This document shows positions 2,445 to 56,552 of a stretch of 64,000 nt of DNA, piece after piece; the first letter of the stretch is position 1; the number at the start of each line of letters is the position of its first letter. A model generated the notes under the pieces. It was not told the origin of the DNA and did no database searches. It saw only the letters and a program-made list of their open reading frames with translations. The DNA is taken from positions 197,594,001 through 197,658,000 of the forward strand of contig OX597815.1 in NCBI GenBank assembly GCA_951406725.2, written 5' to 3'. A program made the translations under genes and the position numbers. Source of the stretch: Octopus vulgaris (Eukaryota).

Positions 2445-2623
2445 AATTTTTTCTCTCCTTGTTTCTCTCCTTGTTTCTTTCCTGTGTATCTTTCTGTCGA
2501 AGAGCATAGGCTCGAAACGTAAAAGACTTGTTTTATTTCTATTCCTGAGCGCCATACTAATACATTGTTTGTTTGTACTCCACCTGCTTCGTCTTTTGTT
2601 TATTTTCGTAAATCTTCTGATTA
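2445..2623 (+). mobile_element. Short PLE-terminus repeat, family H, with variant HHR-like motif at 2489-2526
   Basis: TCTTT-CTGTCGAA-GAGC ATAG GCTC-GAAAC-GTA-AAAGA. Homologous copies at 9665, 24204, 33522 and 56380. Ends in (TA)n. Confidence 0.75.
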
Positions 2624-3072
2624 TATGTATATATATATATATATATATATATATATATATATATATATATATATATATATATATATATGTATATATATGT
2701 ATATGTATATATATATATATGTATGTATATGTATATATATATATATATATATATATATATATATATATATACATATATATGTATGTATGTATATGTATAT
2801 ATACATATATATATGTATGTATGTATATGTATATATACATATATATATGTATGTATGTATATGTATATATACATATATATATATGTATGTATGTATATGT
2901 ATATATACATATATATATTTAGGTATGTATATGTATATATACATATATATATGTATGTATGTATATGTATATATACATATATATATAGGTATGTATATAT
3001 ATATATATATATATATATATATATATATACATACACACACACACACACACACATATATATATATATATATAT
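2624..3072. repeat. Compound (TA)n/(TATG)n/(CA)n microsatellite
   Basis: Directly visible. It generates the YIYI ORFs. Confidence 0.95.
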
Positions 3073-3472
3073 CTTCTTTCAGTGTTTATTTTTCAGTCAT
3101 TTTGACAATGGCCATGCTGTAGCACCAATTTTAGTCACACAAATCGACCCCAGGAAATTCTATTTTAAGCCTAGTACTTATTCTGTTAGACTTTTGACAA
3201 ACCGCTAAGTTACGGGCACGTAAACACATCTACATCGGTTGTCAAGCGATGTTGGGGAGACAAACAAGGACCACACACACACACAGATACACGCACATGC
3301 ATACAAATATATACGGCAAGCTTCTTTCAGTTTCCGTCTATCAAATCCAGTCACAAGGGTTTCCTCGGCTCGGACGTTTCGTAGAAGACACCTAACCTAG
3401 GTGCCACGCAGTGAGGCTGAACCCAGAACTGTGTGGTTAGGAAGCAAGCTTCTTACAACACAACGACAACGC
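3072..3472 (-). mobile_element. SINE family A, diverged copy
   Basis: Collinear with the 2057-2429 copy, with many substitutions. Confidence 0.85.
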
Positions 3473-3676
3473 ATATGTGTGTGTATGCATGTATGTATGT
3501 ATGTATGTATGTATGTATGTATGAATATATGTATATATATATATATATATATATATATATATATATATATATATATATATATATATATATATATATATGT
3601 ATATATATATATATATATATATTAAGTATAGGAAAGAATGGAGCTGAACGAAGATTTAACAAAATTCCTTCATTTT

Positions 3677-3762
3677 ATTTTCGACATATGTTTCGAAGTC
3701 TGCAAAATCCCTAATTCCGGATGAATAAGGAGTCCATTATGCAGCATTCTCTTCAGGAAAAT
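3677..3762 (-). ncRNA. Type I hammerhead ribozyme, canonical core
   Basis: Minus strand: ATTTTC-CTGAAGA-stem II (GAATGCTGCA..TGCAGACTTC)-GAAAC ATAT GTC-GAAAAT. 6-bp stem I, palindromic stem III, GUC cleavage triplet. Confidence 0.85.
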
Positions 3763-4367
3763 CCAGGAACTTAATTCTCCAACAAAATGCACAAGTTTTT
3801 CGATGACTGCTCACGAGGAGCCCATAGAAATAATGATAAATAATGTCTATTTATAGGGGGTGACGCCAGATTAGTTGAAAGTAGGAGAAAATGTCCGTTA
3901 AAATAGTTCAAGGGTTCAATCAGGGTTGGAGAAAGAAGGTAAAGGAAAATTAAAGTGAGGGAATGTATTCTGTATGACTGGTGTTTATATTTGATTTATT
4001 TTATGATTGAGTGCTCGTATGTATGAGTGTGTAAAATTGCCTTAATGTGTGTGTGTGTGTGTGTGTGTATGTGTGTCTGTGAATGCGTGAATGTGTGTGT
4101 GTGTGTCTGTGAATGCGTGAATGTGTGTGTGGAAGGCAGAGAGAAAGAATTAACGGTCAGGAGGTGAAAAGACTGTGTCTGTGTGTTCGAATGTGTCAAC
4201 TTAAGAGGGAGAGGGCAGATGGGGGCAACAATAGTAATGACAAGAGACAGGGTTACTGCTGGAATTGGTAGTAGTTCTTAGCAATTATGAGAAAGTCTTA
4301 TAAACTTAAGGGATGAGATATCACATTTTAATTTTGTAGGAAATCCAGGGGTTATCTATATTAGACT

Positions 4368-54456: not shown

Positions 54457-54669
54457 ATAAACATCGTTTAAATTGCATTTTCAAACCTTTTTTCTTATAT
54501 AATCCCACTCGTGCGATACCCCACAACTCAACTTTTATATATATATATATATATATATATATATATATATATATATATATATATATATATATATATATAT
54601 ATATATATATATATATATATATATATATATATATATATATATATATGTATATAATATATATATATTTAT

Positions 54670-55128
54670 GTATATTTGTGAAAAAGAAGTTTGAAAACGC
54701 CACTATATTAGATAAATTTTAATTTTCTTATGAATTTTACATTTCGGTTCTTGAAAAAACGAACCTTATCAAAAATATTTTAAAAAGTAATGTGTAATAA
54801 AAAAGTTCATAATTGTTTCTTACTGGTCTCCGATACCAGCAAGAAACAATAATGAACTTCTTTACTACACTCAACTTGAAATTTATAGCTATTATACCTA
54901 CTACCGACAAAACACCACCACATGGATTCTATTGAGACCAGCAGGAAACAATTATGAACTTTTCTATTACACTTTCCTTTTTAAAATATTTTTGATAAGG
55001 TTCGTTTTTCCAATAACCGAAACTCGTAAAATTCATAAGAAAATTAAAATTTATCTAATATAGTGGCGTTTTCAAACTACTTTTTTACAAATATATACCC
55101 ACTCGTATATGATCTACTCTTATTATAT
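54670..55128 (+). mobile_element. (TA)n-flanked foldback element (arms ~54670-54830 / 54934-55096)
   Basis: Long diverged inverted arms, with an extra partial arm at 54833-54870. Confidence 0.8.
54987..55033 (+). ncRNA. Hammerhead motif, U3-A8 core variant
   Basis: ATTT-TTGATAA-GGTT..AACC-GAAAC TC GTA-AAAT. Confidence 0.65.
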
Positions 55129-55236
55129 GTATATATATATATATATATATATATATATATATATATATACATATATATGTCTATGTGTATTTGTGTATGC
55201 AAATACACAGATGTATGAGTTGTTCTGACACATTAT

Positions 55237-55685
55237 TTCTAGCAATGCTGGTGCTAACTGGCATCCTTAATCACCTTAATGCCGTCTGTATTTGTGCCGT
55301 TTGGTTGTAAGTTGCGAAAAAGCCACCCTAATAATTTATAACTTTCGCTTTTATCATTTATGCAATCAGCCTCTGAGTCTTCCATTATTTTCTATGAGCT
55401 AACAAGACGAGTTAGATTTGATACTCGGCAACCGGATGAGAGGTCACTGATAAGGATTAATCATATCCGAAATCATCGATGATCTGGCTCTGCTTCGCTT
55501 GCTGTAGGGAGCTTCTCTCCCTCGTCAGTAGTCATTAGCTAAGTGCTTCCCGTGGCTAATATTTCTTCCGACTCTTACTTCTAGCAATGCTGGTGCTAAC
55601 TATCACCCTTAGTAACCATAGTGATGTGTATACTTATGCCTTTTCGTTGTAAATTGCGATTAAGCAACCCTAATAATATTTATAA
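55237..55685 (+). mobile_element. Partial tandem repeat (~342-bp period) containing an HHR; retrozyme- or pLTR-like
   Basis: ~105-bp direct repeats starting TTCTAGCAATGCTGGTGCTAACT at 55237 and 55579. Confidence 0.65.
55442..55489 (+). ncRNA. Type I hammerhead motif (C3-A8 mismatch)
   Basis: GGTCA-CTGATAA-GGAT taatcat ATCC-GAA-ATCATCGATGAT-C-TGGCT. 12-nt palindromic stem III, AUC triplet. Confidence 0.7.
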
Positions 55686-55939
55686 ATCAGTAATGAAAAA
55701 CAAAATAAATTGTACAATTATAAATTCAATTCAACTTAAATAGGTTATACAAACAAATAAATTCAATTTTTGCTGGCACCGCCATTTGGGAAGGTATCGG
55801 TATTATCGTTAAATGTGCGAAACAGAATATTACCAATTGGTCAATAACTGATGAAAGATTACTGACCTTCTGTTTTCTGCTCGTTTTTACATTCAGTATA
55901 CGTTGCGTCGTGTGTTTATATGTTCATTTATATATAAAG

Positions 55940-56552
55940 ATATACGGGAATACGGAGAAATAGCGTTAAGTGAGCACATCGACATTTGCGCCACTAATGA
56001 AAAACCCAACTTTAGAATTTTTTCCCCTCTGTAATTTTAAGGCCAATGCAACCTATAATCAGCGCATTAGCAAAGAATCATATTTTATAGCAAATATACA
56101 CACGTCAGTACACACATACACTCATGATAACCCCACAAGTCCATACGCACATACGCGAATCACATGAAATGCGCATCACTCCATATAATGTACACACTCA
56201 GATAGGTATGCTTATGCAAACACACACACAAGTTCACTTAATTTTCAGCTCCCCCACACATACATACGCGCTCGCCCCATACACTCATACACGCTCATAA
56301 TCACCATTCTCGCATAAACACGCTCACTAGGTCACTGTTTTTATCACCATTTTATTCAGCCTCTTTCTTCTGGACATTTAATCACGCTGAACCATTAACT
56401 CTACACATTTCTTTCTTTCCTCTTAATCATTTCTGTATAAGAGCGTAGGCTCGAAACGTCAAAGACTTTTCCATTCTTCCCGAGCGTTAAATAAATATAC
56501 CTGCTTGTTGTACCTCCACCTGTTTTTTTCTATTGTCTTCTGTAAATTTGTA
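55940..56552 (+). mobile_element. PLE 3' fragment: GIY-YIG C-terminus followed by a family H terminus
   Basis: EYGEIALSEHIDICATNEKPNFRIF/PLCNFKANATYNQRISKESYFIA (one frameshift), then a family H motif at 56430-56464 and (TA)n. Confidence 0.7.

Follow-up and report, generated by a model that had tools for sequence, protein, structure and literature searches.

The closest described relatives of the motif reported here are the min-HHRs, hammerhead ribozymes (HHRs) of metazoan Penelope-like elements (PLEs). Their published consensus is composed of CUGANGAH, stem II, GAAAN, a palindrome (15.2-16.2) and NUH, and their cleavage is weak and confined to dimers or multimers (PMC4209133). PLE hammerheads, weak in cleavage and dispensable in the only system reconstituted, have been suggested to be passengers. 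The window analysed here, 64,000 nucleotides of Octopus vulgaris DNA (assembly GCA_951406725.2, contig OX597815.1, forward-strand positions 197,594,001 to 197,658,000), contains five hammerhead-like motifs, all on the + strand. The five sites are remnant 3′ ends of a very abundant Penelope-like retrotransposon, designated family H and apparently of Neptune type. In all five copies, position 6 of the core is U (T in the DNA) in place of A. This family-wide A6U change in an otherwise known type of PLE min-HHR appears to be new.

The family H motif resembles the Neptune HHR of Acropora digitifera in several respects. Both are of type I, with one additional nucleotide separating position 9 from 10.1, a G10.1-C11.1 pair, a loop-less palindromic ACGU stem III, a short stem I and U- and AU-rich flanks, and both are placed in the two pseudo-long terminal repeats (pLTRs) of the element and occur as thousands of solo copies (PMC4209133). 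In the alignment of that paper, A6 is present in every row examined, as the search descriptor demanded, and U3-A8 is the sole core covariant, whereas U6 is fixed in family H and found in >20,000 copies including intact elements. For Neptune and Nematis elements, which encode an endonuclease (EN+), canonical HHRs are described as a universal feature (PMC8557442), unlike the non-canonical core of family H. A natural substitution at core position 6 is known from phage Bcep176, whose A6C hammerhead has low yet detectable activity that is rescued by Mn2+ (PMC3088659, PMC7151607). That case, however, is known from one phage sequence, has C in place of U, and involves neither a dimer-type min-HHR nor a retroelement. 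The Poseidon element PAc of Anolis carolinensis shares with family H a pLTR-ORF-pLTR organization (ORF, open reading frame), insertions that end downstream of the HHR and AT-rich targets. PAc belongs to the Penelope/Poseidon clade and its competent HHR overlaps the ORF start, whereas the family H motif is non-coding and carries U6 (PMC11167929). No natural A6U or CUGUNGA hammerhead was found in the literature searched, a scope that left outside it PMC5785218, a catalogue of PLE variants, and several supplements as possible sources of A6U. An "A6U" passage that did surface concerns the twister ribozyme. Term searches of PMC11014351 and PMC11300833 contributed nothing further, and the passages covered of an octopus repeat-annotation paper (PMC13282606) make no mention of ribozymes.

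The C3 residues of the five window motifs lie at 2494, 9736, 24273, 33602 and 56433. An earlier note on this DNA had listed five copies with U at position 6, with C, G, G, A and A at position 7 and with the triplets GUA, CUU, GUA, GUA and GUC, and all of these letters were recovered on re-reading. No sixth copy is present in the window on either strand at up to three mismatches. Each motif is hosted by a homologous repeat of 150-400 nt that terminates in a microsatellite, mostly (TA)n. Copy 1, with motif and stem I at 2490..2525 (+; U6 at 2497, H17 at 2521), falls in a younger subfamily cluster and sits in a 5′-truncated PLE end at ~2441-2623 (outer limits by eye) followed by (TA)n. Copy 2 (9732..9767, +; H17 at 9763) lies in a remnant at ~9657-9869 of the subfamily with N7=G and H17=U, copy 3 (24269..24304, +; H17 at 24300) in one at ~24205-24398 that runs into (TA)n, and copy 4 (33598..33633, +; H17 at 33629), of the subfamily with N7=A and H17=A, in one at ~33521-33724 flanked on both sides by (TA)n runs. 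Copy 5 (56429..56464, +; H17 at 56460) belongs to the most diverged subfamily (H17=C), and its remnant, ~56134-56555, takes in a CA-rich 3′ untranslated region (UTR). Three of the five copies show private decay: G16.2>C in copy 2, which disrupts the ACGU palindrome of stem III, C3>G in copy 3 and G8>U in copy 5. An Rfam scan of the window returned no hammerhead among the best 150 of 274 matches; these 150 all score below the gathering thresholds and are almost all miRNA-family matches to microsatellite-rich stretches.

Judged by its letters, the motif conforms to the published min-HHR in all features but one. Six of the seven core positions C3 U4 G5 A6 N7 G8 A9 agree, the exception being A6. 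The segment G12 A13 A14 A15.1 ... U16.1 H17 is unchanged in all nine subfamily consensuses (defined below), with H17 being A, C or U. Stems I and II are 4 bp each, the G10.1-C11.1 pair and the extra nucleotide after A9 are present, and stem III is ACGU in 8/9 consensuses, the remaining one (n=6) showing CpG decay. Two of these traits, the A added behind A9 and the short ACGU helix of stem III, had been regarded as atypical in the earlier note; in published PLE min-HHRs the former is standard and a loop-less palindromic stem III is usual (PMC4209133). The only departure from the published consensus is thus U at position 6, and the motif is best classed as a variant of the PLE min-HHR, not as a canonical member.

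The U6 core extends across the 2.8-Gb genome. Exact matches to a 25-nt pattern number 20,846 with U6, 288 with A6 and 656 with C or G at this position, while reversed control patterns give 0; the motif is therefore not a product of chance. To avoid selection on the core, copies were also sampled by a 20-mer of the tail, as the first 90 of 19,440 matches, all from the start of one contig. Seventeen of the 90 are truncated or gapped, and the 73 with an ungapped core comprise 71 U6 and 2 A6 copies. Among 30 loci selected by their reverse transcriptase (RT), U6 is present in 26/26 with a downstream motif; 2 more have no motif in range and 2 were not oriented. Contig sets from four sequencing runs, which bear the labels of four organisms and come from three studies (one of the runs is possibly the source), repeat this picture: U6>C accounts for 0.5-1.7% of depth, U6>A stays under 1%, the threshold for listing, and the N7 alternatives reach 4-29% each. 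The genome-wide consensus is hence U6 and not the canonical CUGANGA. Descriptor searches that demand CUGANGA miss this hammerhead-like family of >20,000 copies. Most of the copies are 5′-truncated stubs in free decay, with CpG sites lost first. Five U6 matches have a compensated stem II, four of them with family-H tails, and chance double transitions could give the same result. These four old copies of family-H type (stem II GGGC/GCCC or GGAC/GTCC) represent either an older layer or chance.

A sister family in the same genome, family S, has a tail homologous to that of family H and the same stem II, but its position 6 is A and one C-G pair of stem I is replaced by G-C. Its pattern has A6 in 61/71 matches. 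Thirty loci matching the pattern were fetched: 24 are A6, and visual inspection assigns S flanks to all of them (a crude script to 23), whereas family-H flanks surround the other 6, which are U6. Family S was seen only as short stubs, and its ORF was not found among the 30 loci. Other min-HHR families with GG..CC stems show 84 A, 9 T, 4 G and 3 C at position 6 (first 100 of 123 matches, hand count). In metagenome contigs coding related proteins (the best 80 of at least 507), a descriptor that leaves position 6 free detects 17 hammerheads in 15 contigs, 17/17 with A6, and 0 in shuffles. Two metagenome PLE hammerheads display the known U3-A8 core covariation. The presence of A6 in family S and in all 17 metagenome hammerheads indicates that U6 is derived in family H. 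Canonical-core matches with the same spacing number 762 in the genome, families with other stem lengths lying outside this count. A canonical A6 master inside family H was sought and not found: when position 6 is masked for tree building, the deliberately oversampled A6 copies are scattered among U6 copies, a distribution expected for back-mutation.

The motifs of families H and S differ only at positions 6, 7 and 17 and in two loop letters. The two families form a matched natural pair in which an intact, very young U6 element can be set against an A6 sister with the same stem II. This comparison bears on the view that the variant is fully competent, with cleavage about as good as for A6 because the loop, the extra A, a metal ion or the protein makes up for U6. 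The view is very unlikely, since the pair offers no compensating change and published changes at position 6 reduce activity. In its favor are the freezing of the core after A6U, the Mn2+ rescue of the phage A6C hammerhead, and the persistence of U6 across nine subfamilies and four differently labelled organisms.

The true parent of the motif was located at other loci, where a GIY-YIG domain of family H precedes the motif. Searching by protein yielded 13,649 candidates, 150 of which were scored, over a hundred with one identical score, and 20 loci with long ORFs were fetched. The intact element contains a single ORF of 1,080 aa with an RT plus a GIY-YIG at its C-terminus. The RVT_1 match has an E value of 1e-7, and the GIY-YIG match, at 0.006, is below the curated cutoff; homologues carry the same Pfam domains. 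The exact U6 motif is present in both pLTRs at 15/20 of these loci, at a spacing of 4.44-4.57 kb, and every intact element analysed has U at position 6. The paired pLTRs at those 15 loci differ by 0-3 substitutions per 275 nt, indicating that the insertions are very recent. In intact elements the motif precedes the ATG by ~760 nt and the 3′ end of the element by ~100 nt, and copies end 93-105 nt past H17 in 58/66 measured cases. The traits of EN+ PLEs, namely pLTRs, 5′ truncation, partial tandems and an inverted tail, are all present. A CX2-5CxxC linker, a feature shared by Neptune and Nematis (PMC8557442), separates the RT and EN domains of the family H protein. The architecture is of the Neptune/Nematis kind, and the linker and a resemblance to Neptune elements suggest that the element is of Neptune type.

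Several other accounts of the motif were considered and set aside. Coding constraint is rejected by its position before the ATG and by stops in all three frames; N7=A also creates a stop codon in the KSVGSKR frame of the motif. A splice acceptor at CTGTAG occurs in the N7=A subfamily only and is hence not general. Non-LTR retrozymes form short non-coding tandem HHR arrays, whereas the copies here are dispersed, and same-strand motif pairs at the fetched loci are mostly full-length units of 4.4-4.6 kb, with only 2 pairs <300 nt apart. At three loci, motif-bearing ends form inverted pairs 150-660 nt apart, the usual inverted-tail structure of PLEs.

The earlier note had tied the motif to PLEs through a GIY-YIG C-terminus ahead of copy 5. 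This fragment (55942..56101, +), ~330 nt upstream of copy 5, is real and frameshifted, but it derives from a different PLE family, so that the link it seemed to provide is coincidental. It is rejected as the parent of copy 5, as the family H motif is found within 900 nt downstream of 0/21 other copies of the fragment, and their 3′ UTR is different. In that other family, (CTT)n tracts mark the 3′ UTR behind the GIY-YIG, and a simple hammerhead pattern occurs within 900 nt downstream in 2/21 copies, at unrelated positions.

A tree of 199 copies was cut by hand, on short sequences, into nine family-H subfamilies of 6-31 copies each; 143 copies were used, with family S and unplaced copies excluded. 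The flank consensuses of the nine subfamilies differ by 7-40%. Invariant columns make up 32/33 of motif plus stem I (positions 6, 7 and 17 left out) versus 54/128 of the flank (Fisher P 1.5e-9; P 1.4e-5 against the downstream flank alone). Parsimony assigns 1 change to the 33 motif and stem I columns, where the downstream flank would predict 18.6 (P 1.7e-7), and 0 changes to the ten catalytic-core positions (P 0.004). In contrast, there are four changes at N7 and three at H17, the latter being A, C or U and never G. A frozen core in which only N7 and H17 vary is the hammerhead pattern. Core and stems are thus far more conserved than their flanks, so that neither outcome by which the earlier note would have been refuted, a canonical consensus or conservation no higher than in the flanks, is observed. 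The remaining core letters show strong purifying selection after A6U. Across families, 7/10 pairs change on both sides, a value reached by 0/500 shuffles in a sample of 25 related sequences chosen by hand; within family H the covariation test is empty because the stems are invariant among the subfamily consensuses.

The same data bear on neutral hitch-hiking, by which the motif would be a functionless dead relic carried along in one successful master element. The prevalence of 5′-truncated stubs decaying freely, CpG first, and the scatter of A6 copies that back-mutation predicts would both suit it. The flanks of the masters, however, have diverged by up to 40%, while the block shows one change where about 19 are expected, and protein constraint leaves the conservation of a non-coding block unexplained. 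Neutral hitch-hiking is largely refuted and scarcely credible.

We consider it somewhat probable that the family H motif is an attenuated ribozyme, likely dependent on dimerization and on protein, that cuts itself slowly. A fixed non-canonical ribozyme variant had been proposed in the earlier note; the fixed non-canonical core, seated in a PLE pLTR, holds, and the ribozyme part is a prediction. In the proposed mechanism, the pLTR would drive a transcript carrying both motifs, and the ACGU palindromes of the two motifs would pair to form stem III, as published for min-HHRs (PMC4209133). The RT-EN protein of the element may chaperone the fold, as published for the Anolis PLE, in which protein assists the HHR and insertion in vitro can do without it (PMC11167929). 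U6 would slow cleavage, by analogy with A6C and CUGA mutants. Reverse transcription would start ~100 nt downstream of the cut site; such a start, together with full-length copies spanning the upstream motif, implies that the productive templates are uncut or re-ligated RNA. Low cleavage may therefore be tolerated or favored, a slower ribozyme costing little and perhaps helping. Residual cleavage, in the processing of read-through RNA or in circularization, would keep the other core letters under selection, and their retention suggests that some cutting still matters.

Within this scheme, A6U may have acted as an adaptive brake, lowering cleavage to a level gated by protein or metal, leaving more uncut template and allowing the family to become dominant. 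The >20,000 exact copies of family H, compared with 61 A6 matches for family S, fit such a course, which is nevertheless unlikely. If true, it would provide a natural U6 hammerhead together with direct evidence that the cleavage rate sets PLE proliferation.

Several observations weigh against a slow self-cutter. When another hammerhead was subjected to saturation mutagenesis, every single mutant of the CUGA region had low activity, except for the C3/G8 swap (PMC9901934), and U6 on top of an already weak min-HHR could mean no activity at all. The statement that H17 is never G rests on three H17 changes only. Several subfamilies were found with core-containing patterns, a bias towards conservation; samples drawn by tail, protein and DNA similarity agree, however. 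The two A6 copies sampled by tail both belong to a single old subfamily (2 of its ~9), which has 84 T, 10 C and 6 A but no G at position 6 (first 100 of 391 matches, hand count), and a small old A6 sub-branch within family H is possible. The non-catalytic loop II is also invariant (4 columns, P 0.11), and part of the constraint may reflect sequence-specific binding.

This last point leads to a dead ribozyme, in which A6U abolished cutting and the fold or sequence is kept for RT-EN binding, as a pLTR promoter or as a domain for RT initiation. Such an origin is possible but doubtful. It would account for the freezing of the whole 36-nt block, loop II and the extra A included, and for the finding that 0/15 copies truncated near the motif (offsets -11 to +46) begin at the cut site, a further point against self-cutting. 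The dispensability of HHR catalysis for in vitro insertion of the Anolis PLE (PMC11167929) and the reported proliferation of Naiad PLEs without canonical HHRs agree with it. The positions that vary are nonetheless only the two that hammerhead catalysis leaves free, with H17 avoiding G in nine consensuses, and in Anolis the region of RT binding and initiation was mapped downstream of the HHR (PMC11167929). Predicted folds are divided. U6 permits a U4.G/G5-C/U6-A helix that lengthens a rod-like, inactive hairpin in several subfamilies, and the U6-A15.1 pair, which also speaks against cutting, has a predicted probability of 0.04-0.98 depending on the subfamily. The rod is favored inconsistently, as U6 stabilizes the predicted monomer in 4/9 representatives and destabilizes it in 5/9. 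Thermodynamic folding z-scores are not significant, and the predicted hammerhead dimer is less stable than two monomers in 9/9 representatives with U6 or A6 alike, giving no discrimination.

The window contains further elements apart from family H. A near-perfect inverted duplication at 28464-28613 holds two type I hammerheads on opposite strands, in which the core is the canonical CUGAAGA, stem III is palindromic and position 10.1 is A and not G. A decayed PLE of another family, with RT-thumb-like and GIY-YIG frames interrupted by microsatellites, lies at 4368-6154 (-). The segments at 43859-44811 (-) and 52452-52829 (-) are presumably fragments of mariner-like transposases. A perfect 90-nt palindrome is located at 63264-63353.

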